From a phage, in assembly GCA_020619395.1 (NCBI GenBank), contig GCA_020619395.1_4860.1: DNA of 64,000 bases. One strand, written 5' to 3'. Position 1 is the stretch's first letter. Every line of letters starts with the position of its first letter. The position numbers and the translations under genes are program-made. The notes under the pieces were generated by a model. The model was not told the DNA's origin. It worked only from the letters and a program-made list of their open reading frames with translations, and searched no databases. Positions 22,911 through 61,100 of the stretch are shown piece by piece.

Positions 22911-22914
22911 GTTT

Positions 22915-43326: not shown

Positions 43327-43353
43327 TCGGCCTGCAGGCAAAAAAGATATAGG

Positions 43354-43397
43354 TACCCTACTCCCATTGGGAGTAGGGTTTACCTTTTATTTTTTTC
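43354..43397 (+). terminator. rho-independent terminator (CCCTACTCCC/GGGAGTAGGG family)
   Basis: 10-bp GC stem, attg loop, long T-run. Confidence 0.65.
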
Positions 43398-44649
43398 TTG
43401 CTTTGTAGCGATGCATTTCAACAAACGGCTTACCCCAAGCCCCGAAAGGCCCGACGATTGCCTGCGCGTCGTTTACCAAATTCTGGTTATACCAACGCGC
43501 GTTCCCCAACAAAAAGTTTTCCCGGTCGAAGAATGTGGTATTAAAGACCCACTCCCCTTCTTCCCAGGTCGGCCAGTACCCTACACATTTACCAATACGG
43601 TTAAAGATAGGACCTAGCGTCTTCTTCCCATCTGGGTCAGTCGGGTCTTTTAAATAGAACCGGCCCCAGATAGCGTTGTGGCTTATTCCGTGAATCTCTT
43701 TTTCGAGATACGGGTTGTCTATCGTAAAGATAAACGAGGATTCGTGCGTCAGCAACGCTTTTAACGTTTCTGAGTTACGAATACGTTGAACGGACGTAGG
43801 CGTACTTAAATCACCTACACCGATGGCGTCCCAATCGTAATAGCGACGGGTTTCCAATACAATCTTCGCCACGCTAAGGTTTGGCAGACTCAGCATAATC
43901 GCACGGTCGCTGAAATAGCCCTGCGGTGGCAACCAATGCAGAATACCCCCGATGACGAACCCAACGGTTTTCCCTGTAATGGAATCGGGTAAGGTCAACA
44001 TTAACGAAGAATAGTAATCTCGCGTAGTATCGAGTTTGTTCATCGTTAAACCGGATATGGGGTAAGTCTTCACTTTACCAATATTCGCCATCACTAGACA
44101 GCCGATGTCGGGTGTGTTGGCTCTCCGCACGATGTTACCAGCGCCGGTTAAGCGAACACCCACTGGGTCAGATTGGTGCGGTACCCATTGACCGTTGATG
44201 TTGTACAGTACCCCAGTACGGTATTTCTCTTTCCACTCATCGTCGCAGACTACAACAACGTCGTGTGCATCATCAGGATTGAAGTCCTGAGTGTAGTGGT
44301 ACCCAGGAGGGCACAGGTGCGTTTCTACGGGCACATCTGCATTAATAGACTGGTAGTGTGCCTCAACGAATTCGAGCTTCGGTAAGCCCTTCCCAAGCGT
44401 TGGAATCGCGATTCCTGACTTGGTGTTTAACCAATCTTGCAACGTGTCCGTACGGTTTTGTAAATCAGCCAGGTGATACTGGCTATAGAAGGTATATTCA
44501 GCACCTAGTGCTTCTAGTCCTACTTCGAAAAAGTGGTAGTTAGCACAAAGGGTATTTAAGGGCTGCGTGACATCGATGGTTCCCCAAGTTCGGGTGTCTC
44601 GAGAGAAGCCAAAAGCGCTGTCGGCCCGCACTTGATAAGCAGTAGTCAC
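43387..44649 (-). CDS. hypothetical protein
   Basis: 420-aa ORF on minus strand embedded between plus-strand genes. Confidence 0.55.
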   Translation of the reverse strand: MTTAYQVRADSAFGFSRDTRTWGTIDVTQPLNTLCANYHFFEVGLEALGAEYTFYSQYHLADLQNRTDTLQDWLNTKSGIAIPTLGKGLPKLEFVEAHYQSINADVPVETHLCPPGYHYTQDFNPDDAHDVVVVCDDEWKEKYRTGVLYNINGQWVPHQSDPVGVRLTGAGNIVRRANTPDIGCLVMANIGKVKTYPISGLTMNKLDTTRDYYSSLMLTLPDSITGKTVGFVIGGILHWLPPQGYFSDRAIMLSLPNLSVAKIVLETRRYYDWDAIGVGDLSTPTSVQRIRNSETLKALLTHESSFIFTIDNPYLEKEIHGISHNAIWGRFYLKDPTDPDGKKTLGPIFNRIGKCVGYWPTWEEGEWVFNTTFFDRENFLLGNARWYNQNLVNDAQAIVGPFGAWGKPFVEMHRYKARKK

Positions 44650-44716: not shown

Positions 44717-47700
44717 ATGGCTGTCGTCCCTGACCCGCACTATCAAGAACCGGGGAATATGCAGACCGGTGAAGCGGTAACGCCGATCGGTACTAAGTAC
44801 CGGATGCTGTTCCCCGCACACGCCCCCTTTTATACCACATCCCTGGTGGTCAAGAGTGGCGGCAAGAAATTAACATTAGGTGATGATTACGTCATCACCC
44901 ATGCGTACGTTACGGGCATGGCCCGCACTGGCCATGTTTGTCACGGCGGCGTGTGGATTACCAACCCGAAATACCAGAGCGGCTTTACACTCGATTACCA
45001 TGCAATTGGTATCGGCGAAGCCACTGCAGAAATGATCGCCGCAGAACGAGAAGCGAATAAAGATCGCTATCCCGTAGACTGCCAATGGGATAACGTCATT
45101 GGGGATTTATATTTCCCACCGGTCGATATTAAGTTCGATTGGGAAAACTGGCGTGGCGAATCTGAGTTGATGGAAGCCATTGTTGCGGTTGGTGCTAAGC
45201 TCGGTGAAGCGATCAGTCGCGTTGACCCGATTGCTCGTAACACGTTAGACCTTCAATATCGCGCCGGCGTCACGCTTATCACATCCGAGCAGTATGCGAC
45301 GTACGACGGTACTGGCGGCTACACGTATAACGCGTCGCGTCGTCGTTATTCGTTATCTTACCAGAACACGACATTCGATGCGTATTCGTTAGCGGTAAAA
45401 CACCGTTTACCGAGCATTCCACCGGAAACAACGTTGAACCCAGGCGAGCTGATCGATTGGATGCTCTGTTACGCAAACGGCGGGACAAGTATCCTGCGTC
45501 TTCAGTTGAAGCAACGCGCGATTTATCTTACCTTAACGACAGCGATTGGTTCCGGTTCGTCTAATTACAGCTATACGTTAACTACTGGCCTGACCGATAC
45601 CGAGTTGGCGGGTGAGGTTGAGTTTAGCGTGGTCAGACGCGAAGGTAACGGCGTTTACGACATCACCGTTAAAACAAGCAAGCAAACCGTTAACTACAGC
45701 TTTAACGTTGACAACCCACCGAGCGAATTTGCACCAGGGTATCAGAAAACTGATGTCGCAAAATGGTTGAAGTTTAAATCGGACGTCAACCTAAACTGGT
45801 GGGCAGGTGAGAACGATTACGTCCAGATTCGCTCATTACCTGGCGCACCGTCGCCTGACGTTAACAATGACGTGTACCAGCTGCTGGTAAAATATCACCA
45901 GATTGTCGATAAACTGTACCGTGATGCACCGGCACACACACACGTGCCGCGCAAGGATAACCCGCATCGCGATTCGTGGGGCGCAATCCGTGCTTTGGAG
46001 AATAACGGTATTGCTTCGGACGCGACGCTGGTATACGGAAAAACGCAACCGCAGCTGACAGATTACGTTAACAATCTGTTGCCGAAACTGTCAACGCTGG
46101 CGAATAAGCTTTTACGTTTACCGACGGCTGCACAGTCTATCAACGGCACGTTCGGCATGAAGCCTGGCCTGACTTCAATAACGTCAGCAGTGGGTACCGA
46201 TGAGTCTGAAGGCGTGGGTGCACAATTTACGGTTGACCCGAGGGTTATCCGTTTTATTGGACGCGATTCGCAAACCGTTAACGCCGGGAACAATCCGATT
46301 ACATGGCAAGGTGGGGCTAACCAACTCATCCTTTATCCGGATTCCCGTGGATTGGAGTTCAACGGTAAGAAATTGTTGGACCCTACTACGGTCGGGCCGT
46401 ACCTGCCGGGCAACGAGTCGGGTGGTGATGGACTATTTTACGGAACATCCACAGCTACTGTAACCATTAACGGTAACGGTATTCAGTCTGTTCCGTTCAT
46501 TTGTACTTTTGTTCCACCGGAGTCCGACGACCTTGGCCTGATGGCTGTCCGTTTGTTGGCTACTGAATTCGGTGATCGTGAGGACTTGGCCGCAACGCCG
46601 GCACTCATCAAGAAATTGGATCAGCAGTTTACGGGCAAGTTGGTTGCCGTTAAATCGTACATCAACGACATGCCACTGACGAGTTCTATTTACATCGATA
46701 AAACTAACTTCGGCTTATCGAACGTACAGAACGTCCCAGATGTACAATTGCCGATCTCCCCGCTCCAACAAGCTGAGCTGGACAAGTATGCATTCGTTGG
46801 TCACACACACACTCCTGCTGCGCTCGGGATTAAGCGTGCAACAACGACGGAGTTCGGTTTAGTACAGTTCGGCACCGCGGTTGATGATGCCACGCTGGCA
46901 TTAGACGGCGGTGAGGTCATCCGACAGGCGGACGCCATCACAGAGATAGAGAAGGTTGCGAAGACAGTCGACTCTGGTGCTTCAATCAATATTATTCGTT
47001 ACGGTTTACCCGGCACGGATATCATTGAAAACGGCATCACTTACACCGACTGGATGGTTACTATTAAAGCGAACGATTATTTCGTTGGTCGCGAGTACAA
47101 AGTACCTCTCTCCACATTTAACTTGGCTGAGCTATTCCCAGCGACGCACGAAGATGCTGAGTTTGGCGTGTATGTTGACGCGGCGGGCGATGATGGCAAG
47201 TACATTATCTACGAAAATCCAAACACGGCAGAAACTGAGACGATGACCAAAATAGGTTCCATCATCACCAGTGAAACCGGTGTGGTTTTTGTAGAAATCC
47301 GCAACGTAACGCGTTTAGGTGAGTTTCGTGAATTAGGCGAGCATGTCGAGGACGATAACGCCCATATTCGTCGGGGTATGTCGCAAGCTGAATTCGGATT
47401 TACTTACGGTACAGGCGGGCCTGTGTGGTCCACGGGCGCGCCGGGTACAAAACGTATAGATGCTGATTGGCGTTACGCGCAGGCTAGCAGCTATACGCCT
47501 ATGTTGAAAGCGGACTACGATCCGGCTGCTGATAAATGGACGTTTAAAACAACCAGTTTATCTGTAGCCGATTATCGTTTTGTCCACAACACATTCCCGA
47601 TGTTCCAGAATAACGGCATTACCGCAACGTGGACACCTTTAACCGCAACAGCGGACAGTGTGCTAGAAACGGTAATTGGGTGTTGTCATCACTCGGCCAC

Positions 47701-48430
47701 GTTCATGCACCGTATTTCTGTACTCGTCGCACGCACCGCAGGGCGTATCACCACTCCAGGCGGCGTGAGCACGTATGCGGGAATCGCGGTTAACTACGGA
47801 CGTGCTGCACAGGTTGTTATTGGCTTGAACGGCGTTACTGGTTCCGGCCATGACTGGACGGCACTTAACCCATCGGTGCGTTTCAGCCACACGCGAACAG
47901 CGGACGGTATTTCGTTCGAGGGAACGATTAACATCGATTCCAAAACGATCAACTTTGAGCTGACGCTAACCGCGACAACAAAGACGCTGAAATACACCTT
48001 GCAGTCGACCGGCGAGTCGTGGACTGAGGATTTGTCTACCCGTCTCCGTCCTGACTATATCGACTTGACGAAACTGATTACCGATCCGAGTACGCCGATT
48101 TATCACGGCGTGGGTGGTTTGTTTAGTTCCGACACAGAAGCGCGTTTGACTTACGCTAACCTGAACACGATGCCGACAAAGAATCGTTATTACGCCACGT
48201 TCCTTGACTATGCGATTAACTATTCCGGCTTAAACCGCGCAAGATTCTTTACTGGCGTGGTGGATGCAGGTTTAACGATTAATGAGATGAACAGCGCGAT
48301 GTGCAACTATTCATACAGTTCGTTCCGACCAGTGGATGCAGGTAAAATTCCACTGGTGGCACACCCATCCAAGATGATGACGTTCAATCCGAAAAACACG
48401 TCAGCTCGAACACTTATTATTCGTGATTAA
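44717..48430 (+). CDS. tail fibre protein 1
   Basis: 1237 aa; SD aaggag; N-terminal domain shared with next three genes; T4 gp34-like fibre repeat TTTEFGLVQFGT and HTHTP motif. Confidence 0.75.
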   Translation: MAVVPDPHYQEPGNMQTGEAVTPIGTKYRMLFPAHAPFYTTSLVVKSGGKKLTLGDDYVITHAYVTGMARTGHVCHGGVWITNPKYQSGFTLDYHAIGIGEATAEMIAAEREANKDRYPVDCQWDNVIGDLYFPPVDIKFDWENWRGESELMEAIVAVGAKLGEAISRVDPIARNTLDLQYRAGVTLITSEQYATYDGTGGYTYNASRRRYSLSYQNTTFDAYSLAVKHRLPSIPPETTLNPGELIDWMLCYANGGTSILRLQLKQRAIYLTLTTAIGSGSSNYSYTLTTGLTDTELAGEVEFSVVRREGNGVYDITVKTSKQTVNYSFNVDNPPSEFAPGYQKTDVAKWLKFKSDVNLNWWAGENDYVQIRSLPGAPSPDVNNDVYQLLVKYHQIVDKLYRDAPAHTHVPRKDNPHRDSWGAIRALENNGIASDATLVYGKTQPQLTDYVNNLLPKLSTLANKLLRLPTAAQSINGTFGMKPGLTSITSAVGTDESEGVGAQFTVDPRVIRFIGRDSQTVNAGNNPITWQGGANQLILYPDSRGLEFNGKKLLDPTTVGPYLPGNESGGDGLFYGTSTATVTINGNGIQSVPFICTFVPPESDDLGLMAVRLLATEFGDREDLAATPALIKKLDQQFTGKLVAVKSYINDMPLTSSIYIDKTNFGLSNVQNVPDVQLPISPLQQAELDKYAFVGHTHTPAALGIKRATTTEFGLVQFGTAVDDATLALDGGEVIRQADAITEIEKVAKTVDSGASINIIRYGLPGTDIIENGITYTDWMVTIKANDYFVGREYKVPLSTFNLAELFPATHEDAEFGVYVDAAGDDGKYIIYENPNTAETETMTKIGSIITSETGVVFVEIRNVTRLGEFRELGEHVEDDNAHIRRGMSQAEFGFTYGTGGPVWSTGAPGTKRIDADWRYAQASSYTPMLKADYDPAADKWTFKTTSLSVADYRFVHNTFPMFQNNGITATWTPLTATADSVLETVIGCCHHSATFMHRISVLVARTAGRITTPGGVSTYAGIAVNYGRAAQVVIGLNGVTGSGHDWTALNPSVRFSHTRTADGISFEGTINIDSKTINFELTLTATTKTLKYTLQSTGESWTEDLSTRLRPDYIDLTKLITDPSTPIYHGVGGLFSSDTEARLTYANLNTMPTKNRYYATFLDYAINYSGLNRARFFTGVVDAGLTINEMNSAMCNYSYSSFRPVDAGKIPLVAHPSKMMTFNPKNTSARTLIIRD

Positions 48431-48442
48431 GGAGATTTTTGA

Positions 48443-51400
48443 ATGAAAACGTATCCTTACGATCCTCGGGGTGTAAATCCCGAGTGTCACTTCATCGAGG
48501 AACGTATCATCGACTCCGACAATCCTAACGATCGGGTGGTGATGCTAGATCATCGCCCGTTTTTCGAAGGATTGGTGGTAAGGCTCGCCGGCTCGTCCAT
48601 ACCGCTTACCCGCGGGACGGACTATGAGCTGGAGTATGCTTTAACACCGTTGGACGACTCGGTGACGACCCCGGTGTTTTGCGGGGTGCATCTTATTAAC
48701 CCTAAACTGCGTGGTGCGGTGGTCTTTGAAGGCCAGATGCTCGGGGGTACGTTTTACAGTGGTTTGATTGAGATGTTGGATGAGCTAATTAAGGCACTCA
48801 ACAACCCAACGGCTGCAGATTGGCTGCTTTTAGGTAATCGACCTTCCCTGTACCCAGCCACCCCTGCAGCGGTAGCTTGGTCAGACATGCTGAATAAAAA
48901 GTATGTTGCCTCTGCAGTGCATGATGTGGAGTTAGATGCCGGGGCGGCCAACGAGCAGATTCGTGAAAAGCTTACTGAGCTGAAAGATGCGGTTTTGGGC
49001 TTAGGAACTGAAATCGCCACATTTAACTACCCCGGACACATTGCGTCCACTAACCCTCATGGGACTACCGCGGCGCAGGCCGGTGCGCATCCTGTCAACC
49101 TGAAAACGCCAGATACTTTCCTGGCGTATGGAAAGACGTTGCGTCAGTTAACCAGCGAGGTCCGTGCACTGGGTCTGCAACAATCGGATATCGACAAGTA
49201 CATTTCTAAATGGGTATCGAAAGAATCCAAAGGGGTGTTTAATGCGACGATATCCGGTACTCGTGCCCTGTTCCGTTCTCCTGCTGGTGAATCCGAAATT
49301 GTGTTCTCTGCTGAGGCATTCACTCTTAAATCTAATGGCTCTGTTGTGTTGGCGTGTGGGTATGCCGACACTACTGGAACCGCCCGGTTTATGGAGTGGA
49401 AAGCAGGCAACAATACATTACGTATTGAGTCGACTGGCAGTGCCTTGGGGATGGATAAGCTGACGCTTAATGGTACGACGTTACTGACCACAACTGCTCT
49501 CATGGGCTATCAACAAGACCCTGGTACCGGCGGTGGTACCGTTGACCCGGATGACAACAAACTGTACATTAGCGGGGTGAACGGCATTACTTTCACGGGT
49601 AAAGGGTCAAAAGCCGATCCCGTCACCGGGAAGGTCACAGCCAAACCCGCGACGACCTCTGAACCTGGCGTTGTGACGCTGACTGATAAGCCGAGCGATG
49701 TAGTCAAGGGACAAGCAGTCACCCCAGCTTCGCTCTTACCGTACGAGGGTGATCTGTCTTCGTACGTCAGGAAAACAACGCTGCTGAATAACCAGCCGAT
49801 GGACACTGGTAGCCGAACGCTAACGAAAAAGGATTTGGGTCTGGACTTGGCTGATAACACAGCTGACGTCGATAAACCACTTTCTGATGCGTTGGCAGAA
49901 GCAGTTACCGGTCTTAGTGATAAAGATCACCATCACAACTTCGCCGATTTACAGATCCCAACGGCTTCTCAAACAGTTCCCGGTATCGCTCGATATTCTA
50001 CCAACCTAAACGGCTTGTCGGATAATCGCGGCGTTACCCCGAACGTTCTGAACGATTTGTCAAAACGTTTAGACGTAGTTGCAGCTGCGCTAGCAAACGC
50101 GAAAGAGGATTCCGTGACCGATTTTGCCGCTGTGCGCGGTAAGACTTGGACTGTGGGATCTACACGTACCACCCTCGCCGTAACGGATTTGAATTATTTC
50201 TATCTGTTAAATGGTGCACGTAAAGAGGGGACGGTATCTGGTTCGATAGACTTGCAAACCACCCCGATGTTCCAGTGGTTCTCTCCAGATAACCGTATGG
50301 AAAGAACGTGGCAGAACGCGGTAATTAATACCGGTGCCGGTATTGATTTTAGTGGGTTTGAGGTTGCCGTCCCGGAAACGAACTACGGTGCGCAGATTGG
50401 GTTAACGACAACCGGAATGGGTGATTTGTCGGTCGTTAACCTCTTGGCGAAAACGTGGGTTCGTTGCGACTCTGGTAAGCTGCGGATTTGGGTTCGTGGC
50501 GGTGGTGCTGTTTCTGTTTATCTGGACGGTGAAATTATCGGTGCGGGTATTACAGAAGCGGGGTATCTGGAGGCGAAGGTCAAGGAGGGGTGGAAGCAAC
50601 ACTGCTTAGCATTCCGTGCCGAGTGTAACGATAGCGCTAAAGCAGCCGCAATTCGTTTCACAATTTACGACGGTGACTTTGCGGTTGGGGCCTCGGATAA
50701 AAACACCAAAGTTGCCCGCCTGCAGGAGTTTGTTAAGACGCCGAACGGTTTAAGGCATTACCTTTACGTGAACATGATAACCGATGCGTTATATTCGCGC
50801 GCCGAACCTATTGTGGACACGGAAGGTATTAACCTGGAACGTGGGTATATCGGCCACATTGATGTCCCTGACGCGGGATTGGTTGCAGGCACGACTTACG
50901 AGTTTGAAACGACGTTTGATTTTGGCATGGCGTCCGAACTTAAACGGCACTTCGAAACACGTCTAGCACACGGGGTGAGTAACACCGACTGGTCGTTGAC
51001 GGATAACCCGAAAATGCTGCCGTTGAATAAGGTTGATCCATTACCTAAACAATGGCTGTATGCGTATCCAACTAACCCGTCTGTTTCTGGGGATAACCTC
51101 GTTCGTTTAGATCGTGGGTTATTTGATTATAAATTCGTAAGTGCCACCTCGCTTAGGATTCTTCTTGCGGCGGTTGTTTCCACTGAAAACGCGTCCCCGT
51201 ATTGCTGGTTTACACCAAGCAACCCGAAAGAAAATGGTATGGCGACATTCGAGGGTTCGGTGGTAATCGACACTGATTATCCTGAAGTCCCAAAAACCTC
51301 GGACGTCGAAGTTTCATTAAACTTCATGACCCCTTCTGCTGATGGGAAAGGTAAAACCAGAGTCCTGCGGTGGAGTAACACCAAGACCAGTTTAAATTGT

Positions 51401-52573
51401 GGCTTTATTGCCGCGCCGTACGATAAACCAACCGGAAGAATTGCCAGCACACAATCCAGCGTTACTAATACGCTGGTTGATGCTCCTCGTGTAATCAAGA
51501 GCGTGGATGTTCAGTCGCCTGACTGTTTAGACTATCTCCCGGTTTCAATCGCTAGCGAGTTCGCAGCCATTGGTTCGCGCTGGCTTATTCGTTATCGCTA
51601 TATTGTTGATACGCAGATACTGCGAATATCGACGATTAGTAAGATAGGTGGCCAGGCTTCGGCAACTGTTCGTGAGATAGAATACGACGTTCCGTTTGAC
51701 GCGATTGATTATTTTAAAGGTGGCGCTTTATCGATTAGTGTTACTGGCATCGAAACTGGTGAAGGCGTCACAATCAACCACGGTTTGATGGACCCCTCCA
51801 CAACAGAAGTAGATTTAAATCGTTTCCATTATCTACGCTCACTATTTGAGTCGTATATTGAGCGTTCTCCAGACAGCCAGTCTTCTGGGCATGAGGAGAT
51901 GTCGATATCAACCGTCACGTTCGCGAACTTTGGAGATAACGTCGATAACCCGGTTACGGAATACATCACGATGTCTGCTGCAAGTGAGGGTTATCCGGAA
52001 CTTGCACCGAACGGTAAACTCCCCGCACCGTTTTACAAAGGGCTGCAGAAACGTGGTGCTCCGCTACTTGAGTCGGCTCCTGCAGACTATACGTCTAACG
52101 GTGGTGAATGGAAGTACGGCTTTATGCGGGCTTATCGCCCAACTCAAAATGAGCGTTTTGTGTCGGTAAATGGGACAATGCTCTCTAACTACCCTGGATA
52201 TATCATCGTGGGTAGTGAGAAAATTCCGGGTAATGTTATACCTTTCAGTGCATCGACAACAGCTGTTCAGATATCTGGGACTCTTGCCCGCACGAAACCG
52301 ATGCAGCCAATTCACATCGTGTTCGTGCCTCCGGAAGGTTCTGTGCCGCCGCTGCAAGCGAAGTTCACTATTAATGGCGTGGGCAGTAGTGGTAATCCGA
52401 TGTTCGTGATTACTGAAACGACACCGGTGGAACTTCGCACTGGTGGCGAGACGATTCTCATTGAGAAGCGTAATCCATTCCACATCCCCACCAGGACATG
52501 GGATTGGATTTTACAAACGTTGGATACTGAACGTAGAAACGAAGGCAACAACTCGGGTGAGTGGGCCTCTTAG
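48443..52573 (+). CDS. tail fibre protein 2
   Basis: 1376 aa; SD aaggag; repeats ASQTVPGIARYST and TTSEPGVVTLT; HHH motif. Confidence 0.75.
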   Translation: MKTYPYDPRGVNPECHFIEERIIDSDNPNDRVVMLDHRPFFEGLVVRLAGSSIPLTRGTDYELEYALTPLDDSVTTPVFCGVHLINPKLRGAVVFEGQMLGGTFYSGLIEMLDELIKALNNPTAADWLLLGNRPSLYPATPAAVAWSDMLNKKYVASAVHDVELDAGAANEQIREKLTELKDAVLGLGTEIATFNYPGHIASTNPHGTTAAQAGAHPVNLKTPDTFLAYGKTLRQLTSEVRALGLQQSDIDKYISKWVSKESKGVFNATISGTRALFRSPAGESEIVFSAEAFTLKSNGSVVLACGYADTTGTARFMEWKAGNNTLRIESTGSALGMDKLTLNGTTLLTTTALMGYQQDPGTGGGTVDPDDNKLYISGVNGITFTGKGSKADPVTGKVTAKPATTSEPGVVTLTDKPSDVVKGQAVTPASLLPYEGDLSSYVRKTTLLNNQPMDTGSRTLTKKDLGLDLADNTADVDKPLSDALAEAVTGLSDKDHHHNFADLQIPTASQTVPGIARYSTNLNGLSDNRGVTPNVLNDLSKRLDVVAAALANAKEDSVTDFAAVRGKTWTVGSTRTTLAVTDLNYFYLLNGARKEGTVSGSIDLQTTPMFQWFSPDNRMERTWQNAVINTGAGIDFSGFEVAVPETNYGAQIGLTTTGMGDLSVVNLLAKTWVRCDSGKLRIWVRGGGAVSVYLDGEIIGAGITEAGYLEAKVKEGWKQHCLAFRAECNDSAKAAAIRFTIYDGDFAVGASDKNTKVARLQEFVKTPNGLRHYLYVNMITDALYSRAEPIVDTEGINLERGYIGHIDVPDAGLVAGTTYEFETTFDFGMASELKRHFETRLAHGVSNTDWSLTDNPKMLPLNKVDPLPKQWLYAYPTNPSVSGDNLVRLDRGLFDYKFVSATSLRILLAAVVSTENASPYCWFTPSNPKENGMATFEGSVVIDTDYPEVPKTSDVEVSLNFMTPSADGKGKTRVLRWSNTKTSLNCGFIAAPYDKPTGRIASTQSSVTNTLVDAPRVIKSVDVQSPDCLDYLPVSIASEFAAIGSRWLIRYRYIVDTQILRISTISKIGGQASATVREIEYDVPFDAIDYFKGGALSISVTGIETGEGVTINHGLMDPSTTEVDLNRFHYLRSLFESYIERSPDSQSSGHEEMSISTVTFANFGDNVDNPVTEYITMSAASEGYPELAPNGKLPAPFYKGLQKRGAPLLESAPADYTSNGGEWKYGFMRAYRPTQNERFVSVNGTMLSNYPGYIIVGSEKIPGNVIPFSASTTAVQISGTLARTKPMQPIHIVFVPPEGSVPPLQAKFTINGVGSSGNPMFVITETTPVELRTGGETILIEKRNPFHIPTRTWDWILQTLDTERRNEGNNSGEWAS

Positions 52574-52648
52574 GACGGACTGCCTACGGGCGGGTAGTCC
52601 GTAGGTAAACCGCCCTTCCGTTATTGGGAGGGCGGTCTCCGTTTTATT
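52574..52648 (+). terminator. tandem hairpins / probable terminator between fibre genes
   Basis: two GC-rich stem-loops (cctacgg/ccgtagg; accgccc/gggcggt) followed by ccgttttatt. Confidence 0.45.
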
Positions 52649-52668
52649 ACAGATTAGGAGTGTTTGCA

Positions 52669-55600
52669 ATGCCGAGAGAAGATGCGGCGCAGTTTAACGG
52701 TACCCTCAGTACCGCTACTTACCCGAACCGTTATTCGACGGTCATTCCCGTCGAAGCACCGTTCTATCGCATCGGGTTAACGTTAACCGTTACCGATAAA
52801 ACAACCGGAACCAAACGCAAGTTAATAGAAGGTCTTGATTATTTCTTAGGACATTACTTCCAGGAATTAGCCGAGGCTGAGAACGATGCAATATACGGCA
52901 GCATAATGCTGCTGAACGCCACAGAGGTAGAATACGAGTTGTTGTCGGTTGGTCGACAGTATCGCATCCCTGCTTCTGAAATCGGCAAGTATCTGGTTAA
53001 GACAGATATGAAAGACCCGCGTAACTGCGATTGGTCTGAGCTGATGAAATATCCGCCGATTATCTCGCCAATCGACCCGCCAAAAGATCTCGAAGAAGCC
53101 ATCCTTCGCGATGAGATTGTAAAGGCGCTGGAAGATATCCGACTGGGCATTTTAGAACGTGCCCACGAACTGGATGAGGCTTTTGCCGAAGTTACCGATT
53201 TGATTTATCAGAACGGTAAACAGGTGTTTGATGACGAAATGTATCAACACCACCTGATTAAAAATGCACATGGTTACACCTGTGGCGATATCGGTGCACT
53301 CCCTGTGCTCGGTAAGGCCGTGGATGCGACTAAGGCGTTTGGACGTACACTGGCAGAGCTAGTGACGTTAATGTCTACCAGCGGCATCCAACAGAAACAC
53401 GTTGACATGCTTCTGGATAATACCCTGGGTGATTTACTGGGCCGTATGCGTGTTCTGAATAACGACGCGATTACGTTCCAAACAACGTCTGGTCACGTTA
53501 TCAGCATGAAGGGTGAGAAGTTCATTATCACCTCGACAAAACCGCTGGTATTAAAAGCTGACCAGGATAACAACGAACCGGGTATCGCTACGGAGTTCAG
53601 TGCTGGTCTGAACACGCTTTGGGTTCACTCGGGTAAAGCAGGTGACAAGTGGGGCGCTTATGATGCAGGTGTGCTTGCACCTGTATATAACAGCGTGTAT
53701 CTCGTTACACCGGATATGGTTAAGATGTACTTGACCTCGGTGAAGATACTTCCAGCAAACGCCTACTTCAAGTCCAGCGACACGTTGAAGATTTACGGCT
53801 CTGGTAAAGAAACAAACAAAGTTTACATGAATGCGGAGCTGCCTGCAGCAACCACAACTGTGCAGGGTTTGTTTGCGATTACTAACCTCTCGGCATCCGC
53901 TGCAGCGTCCACAGCGATTTCCCAAAAAGCTGTTACTGACTTGAAGAACAAACTCGACGGATATGTGGACGACACGTATACAGTCAATGGTAAAGGGTTT
54001 GTATTAGATTCAAACGGGCAGATGCATCTGACCTTAACCGCGGCAGATTTCGGTATTGAGAAGATGAACAATACCGGACCGCTGGAGAAACCGGTTACTA
54101 ATGCGTTGCGCACCGTGCTATCAGGCAAAGCGCTTACAACGCACACCCACACCATTGCAGATCTCGATAACGTGCCGTACGCATCCACGTCTGTTACAGG
54201 TTTGGCTAAACTGTGGGATGCAATCGACACTACCTCGGATAAGATGGTCACTTCGCGTCAGGGCTTCTTGCTTGAACAAAAGATTGACACACTGAATGAC
54301 AAGATTGCTACGCTGTTGCCCGCATGGACTGTCGGCGGATCATCGTACGGCAACAATAACTTCTTGCCTATACCTGTCCAGGGGAACTACGAAGGGTATA
54401 CCAAAAACCAAACCTGGCAGAAAGGTTTGGCGCGTTACGAGTCTGGTAAGGTTTACTCGCTCCGTAACGGTTCTAACGGGAATCCACCAGGTGACTGGGC
54501 TATCTATTACGCCTATGCTGATGTGTCGCCAAGCAATACGCTGGAAAATATGCAGCAGACGTCCGTACGTTATCGACCCGCTGGAATGTCGGCGTATCCT
54601 GGGGTGAATCTGGTTGCTATTGTGATTACCGGTACCGATGCAATGATCTGCTTAGGCAGTGACGGTGCGTACTACCTGGTCATCTTCGATGGGACGATTG
54701 ACCATGCAAAACATCATCGTGTTGTTAAAGTGGTGTTGGGTGATTACAAGAACGGTAATGGTGCGGGCACAGTAACGACAGCACCGTGGGCTCCAAACGC
54801 TTCTACAGACGATTTGATTGTTTGTAATGAGCGTGTCTACCTGTTGCGTACGGTGCTTACCTCCGGTGACTATTTCGTGAGTATGCGTAGCATCGCACTC
54901 AACGAACTTAATCCGGGTGGTAGCAACACGTTTGTGGCGGATGCGTTAACAGGCGGGATATTAACGTCGGGTGAAAACGTTTATCTACGACAGGGACAGA
55001 AACGTGCAGCTTCCGATGCGCTCCCAGCACCAGTTACACAGATCTACGCAGACGCGTTAGCGAAATGGAACAATGCAATCAACTTTGTACATGGCCCTGA
55101 GTGTAATCACGCGATTGGTGTTGATGGGCTGAAATTTCGTGTTGGTTTAACGCCAACAGTCTGGTTTGCCTCCTCCACAGGACAGACGATTAACTTTAAA
55201 CAGTGGACGTCAAGCTTTGTTGTCGACTGTAGCGCATTAACGGTAACTCTGGAAGGCGCTGATCGATTCCCTATTGTGGCTGATCTTACCACGGTTCGTT
55301 ATAACAGTGGTGCTGAGATTGGGATTCCGAGCCGGAAGTGGGGCGAAGGCCAAGCTAATAACAAAACCTTTGCAACATCGCAAGACAAGTATATTGTTTC
55401 GCAAGGACATGCAGGCGATCGCGACCTAATGCCTTATGTCACGATTACAACGTTAGATGACGGTGTGAGTTGGTACGAGTACCTGTCGTGCGACTACAAC
55501 TTCACTGCCAGAAGTTTTAGTGCGGTAATGTTAAACCAAGGTCGTGGTTCTATCTACGAGCTGGGTATGGCGTATCCGCTGACTCTGGGAGCGAATTCCA

Positions 55601-57852
55601 GACTTATCTGGTTGTCACAACCGCGTTCCCGTTTGGCAATTGAAGTTGAGTTTGATCCGAACACCACTTACTCAGGTAAGGCGGGGTATGGCCCAACTAA
55701 CAATCGTCGTGTAGTAGATTCTATCACGTATGAGAATCTGTCGCAGATGTGCCACATTGTTACACCGGCGTCGCCTGGTACAGAGTTAAACGGCTGGTAT
55801 TGCACAGGACCAGAAACATTCCCTTATCACAACGTTTCTGGCACTTTCACGATTCATGCCGATCGGTTGACGCTGTCACAAGCCGAATGGGATAAGATGA
55901 AGCAGATGATCATCGACGGTGCACCGGCTGGCGCTGCGAATGGTTATGCTTCGGAATTTATCCTTGCCGCAAATAACGCAGGAAAGGCATTGTTCTCCGT
56001 TTGGTTCATCGGCATTGGTACGGCCACACCGCTCACGTTAGCACAAGTAGCATGTACGCGTACTGTGAACAACGTTAACGTGTTGGATATCTACTACTTT
56101 ACACTGAAACCAACAATCAGCAACGGGCAGGTAACATTCCCCGCAGCGATATTGGCTTTGTTTGACTTCTATAACAACCTCGACTATGGCTTGAACTATG
56201 CTACGTTGGGTGAGATAACGGGAGGAAAAACACGCCGGCCGGGACAACCTACACTGGTGTCGGTAGATGGTACTCGGTTCGGGTTGTATCTTCCACACAC
56301 GTTAACCTTGCGCCTGATTGGCGACTTGGGTGCGCTTAACTACGCTGTTGGTCTTACGCTGTCTAATGGTACTTGGACGCGTTCTTCTGCTCCACACGGC
56401 GTTGGACGTATGGCACCGGCACACACTCCAGTCAGTCCAGCTTATCTGGCCCATCGCGATCAAGTGATGCTACACAACTCATCTCTCGACTACGTCTACT
56501 GTGGTGGTATCGCAACGTCGTCGAGTGATTTTGTCGCGGCTCCTAATTTTAGTGGCCCGACTGAATCGGTTGTCATTGCTGGTGTGGAAACAGCTGAAGG
56601 TTGGCTGGTATATGTGACTGAGGAAGTTGACCTGCGTTTCGGCTCGAGCACTTATAAGCTGCCTACGTGGTATATTGACCTCAGCGCAGCATTTCCAACA
56701 AACCATCAGAACCGGACATTCTACCTGCACGCCAAGGTAGAAAATGGTACACCGAAGTACGTAATGGACGTGATTCAACATCCAGACACTGAAACGGAAC
56801 TCTATATCGGGTATGTTAAAACGGGCTCGTCGCGAGTCGTCGAGACTAACGTCGAACATGCTAAGCGATTAGGGGCGGTGAAACAACTGTTGGAACATGC
56901 GGCGGTTGAGAATAAGCATGATGTGGAGGTGGGAAGGGATGCAGCAACGGGCAGACTGGCACCATTGCGTAAAGAAGCGATGGGTCCTTTGTCGATCGAT
57001 GCTACGAAAGGCTATCTGGATAGTCAGTTGCTTTATACCGTATCCGACGCACAGCGTCGCGGTAAAGCGATGGTGTCCAAACGTTTCGAAGGCTTGAAAA
57101 CTTTGCCGGCGTTTACTCAGGCAAACAAGTCGGGGGCGTTTTGGAAACATCCTACAACAATTGCGACGGTAACGGCCGATGAGAACAGTGAAGCGACATC
57201 GTTGGGTATGGAGTGGGTAGGTATTCCAACGCCCGCTTTCGCTCCGACCTCAACAAACCTGATGGTGGTGGTGCAAAGTAAATTCGTCGTCCCAGGTACA
57301 CCGGGAGTAGAAACGACCTTTAATGTCCACGTTGCCCCATGGGAGGCGGTGGATGGCTTTTTCTACAACGTCGAGGCGGAAGGTACGGATGTTAACATTG
57401 ATGAAAATCCAGAAGTGTTATTGCCGTCACCACATACCGTGCACCACAAACAGCACTCTCTGCCAGCAGGCGTGCCGTGTACCTTTACATTTGTCGCGGC
57501 GGTAAGTTCTTCAGCGCTCGAAACAGCTAACCAGCATATTTGCTCTTGGCTTTTCACTGACGCTGGGGGACTACCAATCACCACCGATCTTTCGGATAGT
57601 AAGATTCAAATCTTACCACAGCCGGGAGAGACCAACGGCACACCAGTTGTTCTGAACAGTCGTAGCTACACGTTTACGAATGTGACAGGTGCAATCCCGG
57701 TTGTTACCACGGGCGCTCAGGGTTTATTCCCACCACCGATCGTGGCGTGGGATGGCGATGATCTTACGTTAACGATTGCGCACGATTGGGTGAACGAGAG
57801 GGGACGTCAACAGCCTGATGTTATCCAGGTCAATCTTATGTTCCGTACCTAA
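52669..57852 (+). CDS. tail fibre protein 3
   Basis: about 1727 aa from ATG at 52669 with SD aggag (ORF track extends to TTG 52624); repeats TTTVQGLFAITN, STSVTGLAKLWD; HTHTIADL. Confidence 0.75.
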   Translation: MPREDAAQFNGTLSTATYPNRYSTVIPVEAPFYRIGLTLTVTDKTTGTKRKLIEGLDYFLGHYFQELAEAENDAIYGSIMLLNATEVEYELLSVGRQYRIPASEIGKYLVKTDMKDPRNCDWSELMKYPPIISPIDPPKDLEEAILRDEIVKALEDIRLGILERAHELDEAFAEVTDLIYQNGKQVFDDEMYQHHLIKNAHGYTCGDIGALPVLGKAVDATKAFGRTLAELVTLMSTSGIQQKHVDMLLDNTLGDLLGRMRVLNNDAITFQTTSGHVISMKGEKFIITSTKPLVLKADQDNNEPGIATEFSAGLNTLWVHSGKAGDKWGAYDAGVLAPVYNSVYLVTPDMVKMYLTSVKILPANAYFKSSDTLKIYGSGKETNKVYMNAELPAATTTVQGLFAITNLSASAAASTAISQKAVTDLKNKLDGYVDDTYTVNGKGFVLDSNGQMHLTLTAADFGIEKMNNTGPLEKPVTNALRTVLSGKALTTHTHTIADLDNVPYASTSVTGLAKLWDAIDTTSDKMVTSRQGFLLEQKIDTLNDKIATLLPAWTVGGSSYGNNNFLPIPVQGNYEGYTKNQTWQKGLARYESGKVYSLRNGSNGNPPGDWAIYYAYADVSPSNTLENMQQTSVRYRPAGMSAYPGVNLVAIVITGTDAMICLGSDGAYYLVIFDGTIDHAKHHRVVKVVLGDYKNGNGAGTVTTAPWAPNASTDDLIVCNERVYLLRTVLTSGDYFVSMRSIALNELNPGGSNTFVADALTGGILTSGENVYLRQGQKRAASDALPAPVTQIYADALAKWNNAINFVHGPECNHAIGVDGLKFRVGLTPTVWFASSTGQTINFKQWTSSFVVDCSALTVTLEGADRFPIVADLTTVRYNSGAEIGIPSRKWGEGQANNKTFATSQDKYIVSQGHAGDRDLMPYVTITTLDDGVSWYEYLSCDYNFTARSFSAVMLNQGRGSIYELGMAYPLTLGANSRLIWLSQPRSRLAIEVEFDPNTTYSGKAGYGPTNNRRVVDSITYENLSQMCHIVTPASPGTELNGWYCTGPETFPYHNVSGTFTIHADRLTLSQAEWDKMKQMIIDGAPAGAANGYASEFILAANNAGKALFSVWFIGIGTATPLTLAQVACTRTVNNVNVLDIYYFTLKPTISNGQVTFPAAILALFDFYNNLDYGLNYATLGEITGGKTRRPGQPTLVSVDGTRFGLYLPHTLTLRLIGDLGALNYAVGLTLSNGTWTRSSAPHGVGRMAPAHTPVSPAYLAHRDQVMLHNSSLDYVYCGGIATSSSDFVAAPNFSGPTESVVIAGVETAEGWLVYVTEEVDLRFGSSTYKLPTWYIDLSAAFPTNHQNRTFYLHAKVENGTPKYVMDVIQHPDTETELYIGYVKTGSSRVVETNVEHAKRLGAVKQLLEHAAVENKHDVEVGRDAATGRLAPLRKEAMGPLSIDATKGYLDSQLLYTVSDAQRRGKAMVSKRFEGLKTLPAFTQANKSGAFWKHPTTIATVTADENSEATSLGMEWVGIPTPAFAPTSTNLMVVVQSKFVVPGTPGVETTFNVHVAPWEAVDGFFYNVEAEGTDVNIDENPEVLLPSPHTVHHKQHSLPAGVPCTFTFVAAVSSSALETANQHICSWLFTDAGGLPITTDLSDSKIQILPQPGETNGTPVVLNSRSYTFTNVTGAIPVVTTGAQGLFPPPIVAWDGDDLTLTIAHDWVNERGRQQPDVIQVNLMFRT

Positions 57853-57899
57853 CAGATAGCGCTATGGGGCAAGGAAGCCCCAATCAAAGGAGTTTGGCA

Positions 57900-59102
57900 A
57901 TGGCCGAAATCATTTATCAGTACCCGCTTGACCTTACCGGGACATTAACGTCGAACGCCGTTACACGGCGTATTACGTTAGGTTCTGGTAAAGTTAACCG
58001 GGCTTTTGCTTTTCCTGACGGAGCTTTCTACGCGGATACCTTCCGCTTGGCAGCTGCGAATAAACCAGGTGTCTACCCGTACAAACGCGGCACAGACTAC
58101 GAACTGATTTTTGCACATACTGCATATCAGAAAATGACCAAGAACCGCGAAGTGGTCATGGGTGTGGTGGTAACTAACTCGGCCATTCCTACTGATATCG
58201 AAGTCTCTGCGCAAGTCGTTGGTGGTTTTCAGTCCGCGAACGTCGAAGGTATCCGACAAGCGATTGCGTCGCTGAAAATTGAAGACCGTGTGGTGGACTT
58301 CAAGGATCTTCGAAACGTACCTGATACGTTCCCATCCGCCCCGACGTATAAAGACCTTGGCGATATCTACGGTTTTGAGTATATCATTACCGTACTCGCT
58401 GGGATTAAAGATGCGATTAACTCCGGCTCTGCAGTACAGCTGGAAGAAATCAAAGGTATTCTGGACGGTCTGAAAAACGACTTCCTCGATGCCTTAAATG
58501 CCCACATCAACGCCGAAGGTAACGTACACAATCTCGACATTCATCAGGTTAATGGCCTGACGGAGACGGAGATTCGTGCTCTGATTCAAAGTGTACAGAC
58601 TGCCATTGACGCCACTATCAAAGATATCGGCGACTTAAGAGCAGCAGACACGGCGTTGGGGCAACGCATCGATGCAATTGTGGCTTCGTTAGCCGCGTGG
58701 AACGACCAGCTTAATGTAGTTGCTCAAAATTACCAGAAAATGTCGTTAGCATTAGCTAACCTTAATTCTCTGGTGTTGCAATTACAGAAGATGGTTAACG
58801 ATCTTCAGTCTGCACTGAATGAAACAAATCAGCGCGTCACGGATCTTGAGAATCAGGGCAAAGACTTCCAACAGCAAATTGATAACCTGCAAGGACAAAT
58901 CAACAGTCTTAAAACTCAGGTTATAAACAACACCAACGCAATTTCGCAGGCAAACCAGAATCTGGCGAACCATGCGGCTGCGGATAACCCACACCCGAAT
59001 TACCTCCATAAACAGTATGGCGGTGTTGTGCAGGCTGCTGTTCACGTCAACAACAGCCTCACCTCGCGCGACGATGTTCAAGCTGAAGCGGGTACTAAGT
59101 AA
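57900..59102 (+). CDS. tail fibre-like protein 4 with C-terminal coiled coil
   Basis: about 400 aa from ATG 57900 (SD aaaggag); N-terminal domain homologous to fibres 1-3; Q/N/L-rich heptad region near C-terminus. Confidence 0.65.
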   Translation: MAEIIYQYPLDLTGTLTSNAVTRRITLGSGKVNRAFAFPDGAFYADTFRLAAANKPGVYPYKRGTDYELIFAHTAYQKMTKNREVVMGVVVTNSAIPTDIEVSAQVVGGFQSANVEGIRQAIASLKIEDRVVDFKDLRNVPDTFPSAPTYKDLGDIYGFEYIITVLAGIKDAINSGSAVQLEEIKGILDGLKNDFLDALNAHINAEGNVHNLDIHQVNGLTETEIRALIQSVQTAIDATIKDIGDLRAADTALGQRIDAIVASLAAWNDQLNVVAQNYQKMSLALANLNSLVLQLQKMVNDLQSALNETNQRVTDLENQGKDFQQQIDNLQGQINSLKTQVINNTNAISQANQNLANHAAADNPHPNYLHKQYGGVVQAAVHVNNSLTSRDDVQAEAGTK

Positions 59103-59167: not shown

Positions 59168-59560
59168 ATGGCGATATCTATTAAAGACGTCAGAAACCGC
59201 GTCCAGATAGTCGAAGCTAACATGGCGACAGGCCCCCGCATCGAGGCGCAAGTGGCCTCTAAAGCCCATAATGCAGCAGACCGATTTGGGGGTTGGACGA
59301 AAGCACAGCTAGATTGCGGCGGGACATGTTCTTGGACGTGCTCTAACGGTTGCTCGCATGGCTGTTCGAGCTGTTCAGGAAGCTGTTCTGCTTCTTGTAT
59401 CGGTAGCTGTTCTTCGACGTGTGGCGGTAACTGTTCTGGTTGCTCTGGTTGTTCTGGTGGTTGCAGTAGTAGCTGTACCGGTAACTGTTCAGGTGGTTGC
59501 GGCGGCTCTTGTTCCGCAAACTGCTCCGGGGCCTGCTCCGGCGGCTGTTCAGGTCGCTAA
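59168..59560 (+). CDS. Cys/Ser/Gly-rich precursor-like peptide A (leader + C-x3-C repeat core, 21 Cys)
   Basis: 130 aa; SD aagga; about 50-aa leader then DCGGTCSWTCS... with Cys every 4th residue; adjacent to radical-SAM genes. Confidence 0.65.
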   Translation: MAISIKDVRNRVQIVEANMATGPRIEAQVASKAHNAADRFGGWTKAQLDCGGTCSWTCSNGCSHGCSSCSGSCSASCIGSCSSTCGGNCSGCSGCSGGCSSSCTGNCSGGCGGSCSANCSGACSGGCSGR

Positions 59561-59570: not shown

Positions 59571-59972
59571 ATGGCAATTGGATTAAAAGAACTGAATAAC
59601 CGATTAAACGCGATCGATGCAAACGCTTTAAAGAACACCACGAATGTGCAAAACTACATTCGCAATAAAGCTACGAATAACGCCGACTTGTTCGCAGGTC
59701 AAGGCCGTTCGCACTATGACTGTGGTGGCACATGCTCTTTTAGTTGCTCGAGTTGTTCTGGCGGGTGTACTGGGTCTGCTACGGGCGGTTGTGGGTCGAC
59801 TTGTTCCGCAAACTGTGTATCGGGCTGTAGCAGTAGCTGTACGGGCTGTAGCTCTTCGTGCTCGGGTGGTTGTAGCGGAACGTGTACTGGTAACTGTTCT
59901 GGGGGTTGTGGTAAATCCTGCTCCGCAAACTGCTCCGGCGCGTGTTCTGGTGGTTGTTCAGGTCCTAACTGA
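59571..59972 (+). CDS. Cys/Ser/Gly-rich precursor-like peptide B (paralogue, 20 Cys)
   Basis: 133 aa; SD ggggga; leader homologous to A; core DCGGTCSFSCS...; C-terminus near-identical to A. Confidence 0.65.
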   Translation: MAIGLKELNNRLNAIDANALKNTTNVQNYIRNKATNNADLFAGQGRSHYDCGGTCSFSCSSCSGGCTGSATGGCGSTCSANCVSGCSSSCTGCSSSCSGGCSGTCTGNCSGGCGKSCSANCSGACSGGCSGPN

Positions 59973-60212: not shown

Positions 60213-61100
60213 ATGAAAAACGATTTGCATCTTGCGTATAAAACCACATTCAACCACCCGCTGCATCTATCTTCCCCAGATTCAGTGCGTGCGCACCTTG
60301 CTGACAAAGTCAGACTGATTGCACAGATTCCTGGTGAGTGGCCAAAGGTTCGTGGTCGCTTCTTGACCGACAAGAAGAACTACACCGTAGAAAATACGTT
60401 TAAGATCCGTGATATGGTTGCAGAGGCCATCGTTATCTTTAACGGCGATGGTAACTCTCGTGGCGTGTTAGTCGACGGTAAGTATTTCTTCAGTGAAGGG
60501 ATTTTGAACAACAGCGTCGATTTAGAACTGATGTTTACACCGTTTGACGAACTTGAAGCAAAACCGATGGCGCGCCGTTGGTGGAGTCCGGACTATCTGG
60601 GCTCGTTCCCTTACTACTTTGTACTGGTACCTGCCGATACGGAAACGTATTTCGACACCGAACCGTACATCGATATCGAGGGATATAAAGAACTCGGCAT
60701 CACCCGTTTAGCGGACATGATGGCGTATAGCTATAAGTTCGTGTGGGATAAAAAGCGTTCTGTCTGGTATGCGTTGACTGACGATTTTGAAATCACCAAA
60801 CGTATTCGTAAGCCGTGGATGCAACACCTGGTTCAAACCCGATATGGGGATTACCCGGCGACAGAAGCGGATTTGAGTAAGCTGGTAAGCTTCCTCTTAA
60901 CGAAGGTGGATTTAACGAAAGAAGAAGCAGAAGCTGTTTCTGAGATTCGTAGTCGTTCGGTAACGTTGGCCGATTTGAAACGCTTGAACGAAAGACACGC
61001 CGACCTGAACAAAATTTTAGCTGCCTATCACGACCCGATGTTACTGGTGCCTGGCGCTAATGTAGACGAAGATCCTTTATTCGCCATTGATTATATTTAA
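60213..61100 (+). CDS. hypothetical protein (cluster-associated, unknown function)
   Basis: 295-aa ORF with SD ggag, lying between precursor peptides and radical-SAM genes. Confidence 0.6.
   Translation: MKNDLHLAYKTTFNHPLHLSSPDSVRAHLADKVRLIAQIPGEWPKVRGRFLTDKKNYTVENTFKIRDMVAEAIVIFNGDGNSRGVLVDGKYFFSEGILNNSVDLELMFTPFDELEAKPMARRWWSPDYLGSFPYYFVLVPADTETYFDTEPYIDIEGYKELGITRLADMMAYSYKFVWDKKRSVWYALTDDFEITKRIRKPWMQHLVQTRYGDYPATEADLSKLVSFLLTKVDLTKEEAEAVSEIRSRSVTLADLKRLNERHADLNKILAAYHDPMLLVPGANVDEDPLFAIDYI

Follow-up and report, generated by a model that had tools for sequence, protein, structure and literature searches.

Background

In Salmonella phage SPN3US, the virion proteins gp168, gp169 and gp170 constitute the low-abundance "paralog family C" (PMC5694885, PMC10052503, PMC5105663), and were called "baseplate/tail fiber candidates" for their similarity to gp131 of phage phiKZ (PMC5694885; PMC10052503). 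The present study concerns the corresponding locus in a 64,000-nucleotide stretch of phage DNA (contig GCA_020619395.1_4860.1 of assembly GCA_020619395.1), hereafter the window, in which four consecutive genes at positions 44717-59102, designated A, B, C and D, are preceded by a divergent gene for a protein of 420 amino acids (aa), designated U420.

For SPN3US, it is known that tailless particles do not contain gp168-170 (PMC5694885), and that gp170 is a virion tail protein (Ali et al. 2017, PMC5694885), gp168 a tail protein "expected essential" (PMC5105663), and gp171 an essential, tail-associated homologue of ORF130 (Thomas et al. 2016, PMC5105663). The neighbouring gp167 was detected in the virion by published mass spectrometry, and its paralog-family column was left blank. 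The published virion spectral counts (SC/M) are similar and low, at 1.90 for gp167, 1.08 for gp168, 1.41 for gp169 and 1.00 for gp170, next to 0.93 for the 12-copy portal. The sole receptor reported for SPN3US is the flagellum (PMC11428620).

In phiKZ, the fibre paralogues are docked under gp130 (Sycheva et al. 2012; PMC13250141), a peripheral baseplate protein situated above the fibre-docking sites (PMC13250141). By cryo-electron microscopy, the 2026 atlas of this phage described twelve peripheral fibres, each with six N-terminal domains like that of gp131, along with a six-helix bundle under gp130, and the fibre base was read as a "candidate" hetero-hexamer of three gp131 with gp133, gp134 and gp135 (PMC13250141).

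Identity of the locus with SPN3US gp167-gp171

The window was found to derive from a Seoulvirus. Along its entire length, the 14.4-kb region of the four genes shares 97.4% identity with SPN3US; for some 20 further Seoulvirus genomes the figure is 94-97%. The calculated masses of 135.5, 149.2 and 187.8 kDa identified A, B and C as gp170, gp169 and gp168, respectively, and the 412-aa form of D, with 44.8 kDa, identified D as gp167; U420 corresponds to gp171. Protein identity to SPN3US was 98.7% for A, 98.2% for B, 97.1% for C, 98.8% for D and 100% for U420. With 97-100% protein identity and neither order nor lengths changed, the genes are effectively those of SPN3US, and scattered substitutions are the sole difference of the window phage from SPN3US in gp167-gp171. 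The SPN3US annotation lists four "virion structural" or hypothetical proteins over this region, flanked by the divergent 420-aa gene upstream and two radical S-adenosylmethionine (SAM) genes downstream.

That SPN3US has paralogous fibre proteins whose N-terminus resembles gp131 has been published before. While the SPN3US papers list three family members, gp167 is shown here to carry the same N-terminal domain; this fourth member and a finer mapping of all four proteins are the small increment.

A common N-terminal domain in A, B, C and D

A first-pass annotation of the window, made from the letters and their open reading frames, had proposed that the four proteins share one N-terminal domain. 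By BLASTP, this similarity was detected between B and C (3e-23, B 39-574 against C 31-558, about 560 aa), B and D (4e-8), and A and C (4e-4), and no direct match was obtained for A with D or for C with D, the pairwise N-terminal identity being just 15-26%. After comparison by hhalign of profiles built from residues 1-200 of each protein and the orthologs from four other phages, all six pairs were aligned with a probability of 93.6-98.7%, E values of 2e-7 to 2.5e-16 and 146-179 aligned columns. The proposal is upheld by this formal alignment, significant for every pair (94-99% probability), and the landmarks on which it had been based turned out to be true conserved columns, namely P-F-Y/F, G-x-D-Y and the N-P closing the beta domain. 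In the PHROG database, phrog_2163 matched A (4e-14), B (7.5e-23), C (1e-87, aa 14-586) and D (4e-108), and phrog_13857 matched A, C and D; A also matched phrog_7557, B matched phrog_8078 and C matched phrog_7449. The domain was absent from every other open reading frame (ORF) of the window.

Alignment of eight sequences, A to D and four phiKZ paralogues, divided the N-terminal module into four elements: a beta domain (about 125 aa) in which one F, one Y and one G never vary (F38, Y58 and G98 in all eight), a motif of the W/F-x2-L/I-x3-P-x2-F/Y-P-P/S type, a helical segment, and an H-x(4-8)-N-P/A/V-H motif. The helical segment and the H...N-P-H motif were found in all of A to D, the segment of A being split by a 220-aa insertion. 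With a profile of the four window N-termini, 3036 representative protein clusters were matched (1921 at E <= 1e-10), always at residues ~1-220 of proteins ranging from 166 to 1901 aa. Judged by this distribution, the domain is a widespread N-terminal adaptor module that precedes very different C-terminal parts.

Among PDB sequences, the ortholog profile of the domain found only 9d93 ("tail collar fibers gp4"), through a repeated fibre motif W-x2-L/I-x3-P-x2-F-P-P-x2-H-x-H with E of 1.3e-4 when summed, each single copy being insignificant. Foldseek of the D model against PDB gave nothing at E <= 0.001 (best 0.11), with no phiKZ chain among the matches.

Homology and synteny with phiKZ gp130-gp135

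The N-termini of A, B and C matched phiKZ gp131 by BLASTP (6e-9, 1e-6 and 1.8e-8, respectively), D matched phiKZ gp135 over aa 9-210 (4e-14), and U420 matched phiKZ gp130 over the full length (5e-15) as well as phrog_3337 (5e-149). By homology, the shared domain is assigned as the phiKZ gp131-like N-terminal domain, and the locus is the syntenic counterpart of phiKZ gp130-gp135. In phiKZ, gp130 lies on the opposite strand and is followed by gp131, gp132, gp133, gp134 and gp135. A minus-strand gp130 homologue followed by two to four genes with this N-terminal domain recurs in 9 other phages, which belong to at least 8 genera, and the divergent gp130-type arrangement was seen in phiKZ, phiEaH2, CR5, a Vibrio phage, Goslar, RP12, Ea35-70 and Moabite. 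When +/-20 kb around each match was examined, four paralogues were counted in the SPN3US-like clade and in phiKZ, three in Ea35-70, and two each in Goslar, RP12 and Moabite.

The window phage and phiKZ are alike in the homologous N-terminal domain, helix and N-P-H motif, in the divergent gp130 homologue upstream and in the row of four paralogues. They differ in protein sizes: of the phiKZ paralogues a single one is large (771 aa, ending in a seven-bladed propeller) and three are small (about 460 aa), whereas in the window phage three are large (1237-1727 aa, their distal parts being beta-sandwiches) and only one is small (400 aa). No BLASTP similarity to the propeller of gp131 was found in A to D past the N-terminal region, and PDB sequence searches for it were empty. 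The unit of helix and N-P-H motif, repeated several times in phiKZ gp131, is present as a single copy in A, B and C.

In the paralogues of Goslar, RP12 and Moabite and in phiKZ gp131, this unit occurs three to six times, spaced very roughly 30-70 aa; the Goslar paralogues with repeated units are located at 14137-16290 and 19977-22025 of locus L013. The only profile-matching part of phiKZ gp132 (110 aa) is one such unit, and D holds two.

Conserved shafts and variable distal regions

Past the helix, A, B and C contain a homologous shaft of about 300-350 aa, with few gaps in the three-way alignment (for the coordinates of all segments, see Table 1). This shaft was also detected by BLASTP between A 387-723 and C 166-520 (1.6e-5) and between A 625-723 and B 425-523 (1e-3), and phrog_7449 and phrog_8078 match the shaft region of A. 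In all three proteins it ends with a module D/N-N-T-x3-5-K-P-x-S/T ... H-x-H ... A-S/T-x4-G-I/L, represented in A by L-P-I-S...H-T-H...A-T-T-T-E-F-G-L; the module of B was also found in minor tail proteins of Arthrobacter phages (39% identity), which are unrelated phages. N-P-H and HxH are 281-293 aa apart in A, B and C; where both landmarks were found in an ortholog, the distance is 273-292 aa. The spacing is conserved (273-293 aa) but is no discriminator between homotrimers and a heterotrimer.

The conservation of each protein was determined in bins of 50 aa against eight relatives, drawn from phages of Salmonella, E. coli, Proteus, Erwinia, Cronobacter and Vibrio. In A, B and C, conservation is concentrated in the N-terminal domains and the shafts, and D is evenly conserved throughout. 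The insertion of A (about 220 aa) is 10-36% identical to the corresponding segments of phages STsAS and phiEaH2, between flanks of 64-88%; it is absent from B, C, D, the phiKZ paralogues and the Vibrio phage ortholog, and a search of 5.8 billion proteins found it in only 7 close relatives, with no Pfam domain in any. In B, aa ~850-1150 are only 52-88% identical to the proteins of phages Lh1B (E. coli) and SaP7 (Salmonella), between flanks of 94-100%, and the nucleotide identity breaks down over this interval too, as is characteristic of a segment that has been exchanged; for the distal 802 aa of B, several allele classes (99, 85, 81 and 54%) exist in close relatives. C is 66-92% identical to its phiEaH2 ortholog before aa 550 and 12-54% beyond. 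In CR5, the C-termini of A (past aa ~900) and C (past aa ~1410) are replaced, its C ortholog aligning only to aa 1411 and having a different C-terminus thereafter. In the Vibrio phage, most distal parts are replaced, and the A 765-883 domain is kept. The distal regions of A, B and C, which are mosaic and evolve fast, are likely the host-binding parts. Of the earlier proposal that a shared attachment domain carries different distal parts, the whole is borne out for A, B and C, but D has no variable distal part.

Prediction of the distal structure, as the first-pass annotation had suggested, gave for B lectin-like and carbohydrate-binding-module (CBM)-like beta-sandwiches at medium confidence. 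The AlphaFold2 model of B 575-1376 has a mean predicted local distance difference test score (pLDDT) of 60, with 70-92 for the beta-sandwich blocks at aa ~650-760, ~870-1130 and ~1220-1340, one of which coincides with the mosaic patch. Foldseek indicated domain-level matches, weak ones, to legume lectins, laminin LG, PA14 sugar-binding and CBM-type ancillary domains; among viral models, the B orthologs themselves came first, followed by concanavalin A-like, PA14 and F5/8-type proteins and host-specificity protein J. The modelled fold is consistent with a glycan- or surface-binding role and is no proof of one.

For D, the AlphaFold2 model showed a beta domain at residues 20-106 (pLDDT 66-86), helices at 153-174 and 178-204, and long helices at 222-360. 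All D orthologs are 396-400 aa in length. Searches of Pfam and NCBIfam gave no family for A, B and C, and for D only coiled-coil matches at noise level, consistent with a stalk. PDB sequence searches with single sequences and ortholog profiles of A, the distal part of B, and C yielded nothing.

Relation to T4 fibre motifs

The three large proteins had also been described as carrying T4 gp34-like repeats and HxH motifs. The literal motif T-x3-G-x4-[AT]-T had zero matches in the window fibre proteins and zero in T4 gp34. A relaxed motif, [AP]-[ST]-x-[ST]-x-x-G-[ILVF]-[ILVAT], has one copy each in A and C and two in B, where about 0.05 would be expected, and T4 gp34 contains three strict and eight loose copies. 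The description holds in so far as one or two relaxed copies per protein exist, but there is neither alignable similarity nor a tandem array: BLASTP of A to D against T4 gp34, gp35, gp36 and gp37 gave nothing below E = 0.79, and the tandem gp34 array of ~40-aa repeats with the core A-T-E-x3-G-I-A-x-I-A-T was not encountered in the window proteins.

HxH motifs are likewise present but sparse, with no arrays such as the eight of T4 gp37. Each large protein has one conserved HxH within the K-P...HxH...A-S/T-x4-G module (A 696, B 496 and C 492), an extra one being located in the N-P-H motif of A (407), and D has zero. The likeness to T4 gp34 and gp37 is in the short A-T/S-x4-G-I/L hairpin motif and in HxH, while T4 differs in its N-terminal attachment domain and in the partner on the baseplate. 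The hairpin and HxH motifs are generic fibre motifs and no evidence of gp34 homology.

Proposed assembly of the fibres

The locus is best read as the SPN3US-type version of the phiKZ gp130-gp135 fibre locus, its products having a common attachment module and divergent distal regions (rough probability, 0.8). A to D each open with the gp131-like beta domain, followed by an amphipathic helix and the H...N-P-H motif. This N-terminal module, shown in phiKZ to be a unit of baseplate attachment and oligomerisation, would play the same role in A to D, and six such modules would dock as a collar under the gp130-type partner, gp171, as in phiKZ. A, B and C continue into the homologous shaft of about 300 aa and then into long mosaic beta-sandwich distal regions, which would supply the host-binding surfaces. 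D is length-invariant and devoid of a variable part, and would form a coiled-coil stalk, as a structural partner rather than a receptor binder.

The phiKZ precedent favours, by analogy, composite heteromeric fibres; the odds are about even that the four paralogues co-assemble through their N-terminal domains and helices, instead of forming four independent fibres. One possible stoichiometry would be a D trimer with one copy each of A, B and C.

Several observations weigh against this reading. Co-assembly of the SPN3US fibres would be an analogy with phiKZ only, and in phiKZ itself AlphaFold models were used to fit the fibres, at 4.4-4.6 Å, the hetero-hexamer being termed a "candidate" (PMC13250141). 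The spectral-count ratio of D to A, B or C is 1.3-1.9 and not 3; published spectral counts are too coarse as a test of stoichiometry. The fold matches of the B distal region are weak (best E 1e-5, low template-modelling scores) and come from a model with a mean pLDDT of 60. Furthermore, the number of paralogues beside gp130 varies (2, 3 or 4), indicating that a 3+1+1+1 recipe is not universal; a universal fixed recipe of this kind was rejected on these counts. A collar of six positions made from two trimers, either homomeric or heteromeric, suits two and four paralogues, and the three of Ea35-70 less neatly.

An inverted form of the phiKZ recipe, doubtful at present, would place D as a homotrimeric coiled-coil core, with A, B and C each contributing one N-terminal domain and one helix to the six-helix collar and then forming a heterotrimeric shaft with three receptor-binding arms, the A insertion projecting sideways as a fourth variable surface. 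The heterotrimeric shaft of this model is suggested by the alignable shaft modules and the landmark spacing of 281-293 aa. If true, the virion would display about 12 fibres, each with three specificities, for instance for the flagellum and cell-surface glycans.

Independent fibres come next in probability to the composite arrangement as a whole, as a possible but rather unlikely alternative: each protein would form its own homotrimer and be plugged in separately via its N-terminal domain, giving four fibre types with several specificities. Receptor-binding proteins of rV5-, phi92- and CBA120-type phages are attached via shared N-terminal adaptor modules, and an N-terminal adaptor common to divergent receptor-binding proteins is found in many phages with several such proteins. 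In agreement with independent fibres, A, B and C each have a single HxH and hairpin module of the trimer-axis kind, their distal parts vary independently of each other, and the paralogue number differs among related phages as expected for exchangeable modules. In contrast, the sole structural data for this domain family, those of phiKZ, place six N-terminal domains from four paralogues at one fibre base. D, with no distal binding domain and uniformly conserved, speaks against a fourth specificity, and the alignable shaft with its 281-293 aa spacing suits a common, possibly mixed, shaft at least as well.

The first-pass annotation had proposed a multi-fibre, branched apparatus with several receptor specificities. 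Its attachment part stands, but separate fibres with separate specificities are unsupported as written, the phiKZ precedent being one of co-assembly; one virion may use several receptors, the only one reported for SPN3US being the flagellum. The comparison with rV5-like and phi92-like phages that it had recommended did not bear fruit, since adaptor-domain homology was not detected in Pfam and PDB searches, and known branching or adaptor domains (e.g. T4 gp10-like) were found in none of A, B and C by Pfam or PDB sequence search. The likeness to rV5, phi92, CBA120 and phiKp24 is in the functional idea of several receptor-binding proteins held through common N-terminal adaptors; the difference is that the precedent here is a six-helix-bundle collar, not chain-like branching.

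It is quite improbable that the large proteins are structural only, as parts of the baseplate periphery or of the sheath trigger, with host recognition by proteins encoded elsewhere in the genome. This alternative draws on the published "baseplate/tail fiber candidate" annotation, which left the matter open, on the failure to find any recognised receptor-binding or depolymerase Pfam domain, and on the further SPN3US tail proteins of unknown role. However, B 850-1150 and the A insertion are replaced in a mosaic, allele-like manner between near-identical phages, as is usual for host-range determinants and not for scaffolds, the B distal region is modelled with lectin/CBM-like folds, the C-termini are replaced in phages of other hosts, and the phiKZ homologues form fibres. 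Finally, resemblance of the N-termini by chance or low-complexity composition, which the low pairwise identity and the two pairs devoid of a direct BLASTP match might suggest, has practically no standing, being refuted by the significant profile-profile alignment of all six pairs, by the independent match of phrog_2163 to all four proteins and by the BLASTP matches of each of A to D to phiKZ paralogues.

The locus probably encodes the machinery for host recognition in a model jumbo phage that is amenable to genetics and is a component of cocktails for Salmonella biocontrol. Its constant parts are the N-terminal domain, the helix, the shaft and D, and its exchangeable parts, namely aa 165-385 of A (the insertion), aa 850-1150 of B (the patch) and the C-termini of A and C, are targets for host-range engineering. 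The comparison with phiKZ suggests an assembly rule for Chimalliviridae-like fibres. The gain is in confirmation and finer mapping, the residual novelty being the possible inverted hetero-hexamer and the mapped exchangeable segments.

Gene layout and feature coordinates

The four genes are consecutive and co-oriented on the plus strand as originally described, and the lengths given (1237, 1376, 1727 and about 400 aa) match the starts that bear AGGAG-type ribosome-binding sites (RBS). For C, an AGGAG RBS is present at ATG 52669, and the longer version from TTG 52624 has none; for D, an RBS is present at ATG 57900 and absent from the upstream ATG 57864. A strong terminator-like hairpin in the gap between B and C overlaps TTG 52624, which favours ATG 52669 as the true start of C. 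Given its position, the four genes may form two expression units, A-B and C-D, or attenuation may take place at the hairpin. A scan for sigma-70 promoters was uninformative because the phage has its own RNA polymerases.

Table 1. Coordinates in the window of the fibre genes, their protein segments and the intergenic hairpin.
Feature	Coordinates	Strand	Description
U420 (gp171)	43387-44649	-	phiKZ gp130 homologue, divergent from the fibre genes
A (gp170)	44717-48430	+	1237 aa, 135.5 kDa; large fibre paralogue
A aa 1-160	44717-45196	+	gp131-like N-domain and first part of helix; 64-86% identity in STsAS and phiEaH2
A aa ~165-385	45209-45871	+	clade-specific hypervariable insertion splitting the post-domain helical segment
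A aa 386-723	45872-46885	+	end of helix with H-T-H...N-P-H, then shaft common to B and C
A aa 765-883	47009-47365	+	domain also in C aa 1297-1417 (BLASTP 2.5e-9)
B (gp169)	48443-52573	+	1376 aa, 149.2 kDa; large fibre paralogue
B aa 1-206	48443-49060	+	gp131-like N-domain, helix, H-x5-N-P-H motif
B aa 207-575	49061-50167	+	shaft common to A and C; D-N-T-A-D-V-D-K-P-L-S...H-H-H...A-S-Q-T-V-P-G-I
B aa 576-1376	50168-52570	+	distal region, modelled as three beta-sandwich domains
B aa ~850-1150	50990-51892	+	mosaic (exchanged) patch within the genus
Hairpin in B-C gap	52609-52636	+	terminator-like; 12-bp stem, 8 G-C pairs, then T-rich tail
C (gp168)	52669-57852	+	1727 aa, 187.8 kDa; largest fibre paralogue
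C aa 1-201	52669-53271	+	gp131-like N-domain, helix, H-H-x4-N-A-H motif
C aa 202-560	53272-54348	+	common shaft; N-N-T-G-P-L-E-K-P-V-T...H-T-H...A-S-T-S-V-T-G-L
C aa 561-1727	54349-57849	+	distal, largely lineage-specific; A-like domain at aa 1297-1417 (56557-56919)
D (gp167)	57900-59102	+	400 aa, 43.5 kDa
D aa 1-~150		+	N-domain; helices and N-V-H motif to ~210
D aa ~222-360	58563-58979	+	long coiled coil; short C-terminal N-P-H tail beyond

Two ORFs are located just upstream of gp171, one for a 310-aa protein (41976-42908, plus strand) that carries the annotation of baseplate assembly or puncture protein in related phages, and a small one of the DUF1471 type (43093-43341), indicating that the fibre cluster lies inside a larger baseplate module.

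Neighbouring cassette and other observations

Directly after the fibre genes, two ORFs (59168-59560 and 59571-59972) encode paralogous proteins of about 130 aa, whose C-terminal halves consist of Cys/Gly/Ser repeats of the CxxxC type; both match phrog_6085 (~1e-40) and, weakly and below threshold, TIGR04114 ("rSAM target Cxxx repeat"). These Cys-rich ORFs are followed by a 295-aa protein of unknown function (60213-61100) and two radical-SAM proteins (61087-62037 and 62030-63358). The best match of the 442-aa radical-SAM protein is TIGR04115 ("radical SAM peptide maturase, CXXX-repeat target family"; 3e-36, below the cutoff), and it also matches PapB-type ranthipeptide maturases. By its predicted products, the segment 59168-63358 looks like a phage-borne cassette of substrate and maturase resembling those for ribosomally synthesised and post-translationally modified peptides (RiPPs). 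Radical-SAM genes are located downstream of the fibre cluster also in phiEaH2, CR5, STsAS and Ralstonia phage RP12. In the RefSeq record of SPN3US, the only coding sequence annotated over this stretch (22928-23263 of locus L001) coincides with neither Cys-rich ORF.

Homologues of B of 1392-1393 aa (about 36% identity) form more than 100 distinct clusters at 90% identity; the contigs that encode them reach ~220-227 kb and belong to assemblies with the labels Salmonella enterica, E. coli and Shigella. A second lineage of jumbo phages seems to be represented here, one met very often when enterobacterial isolates are sequenced, perhaps because it persists as a carrier-state or pseudolysogenic phage.

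In several records of SPFM Salmonella phages, the fibre genes are fragmented (tblastn matches in 2-8 pieces, odd protein lengths), likely as a result of frameshift or sequencing errors in the deposited genomes rather than biology. In Vibrio phage pVp-JHP1101, an annotated tail fibre assembly protein (22626-23021 of locus L008) is encoded between the C and D homologues, a position at which the enterobacterial phages have no gene.

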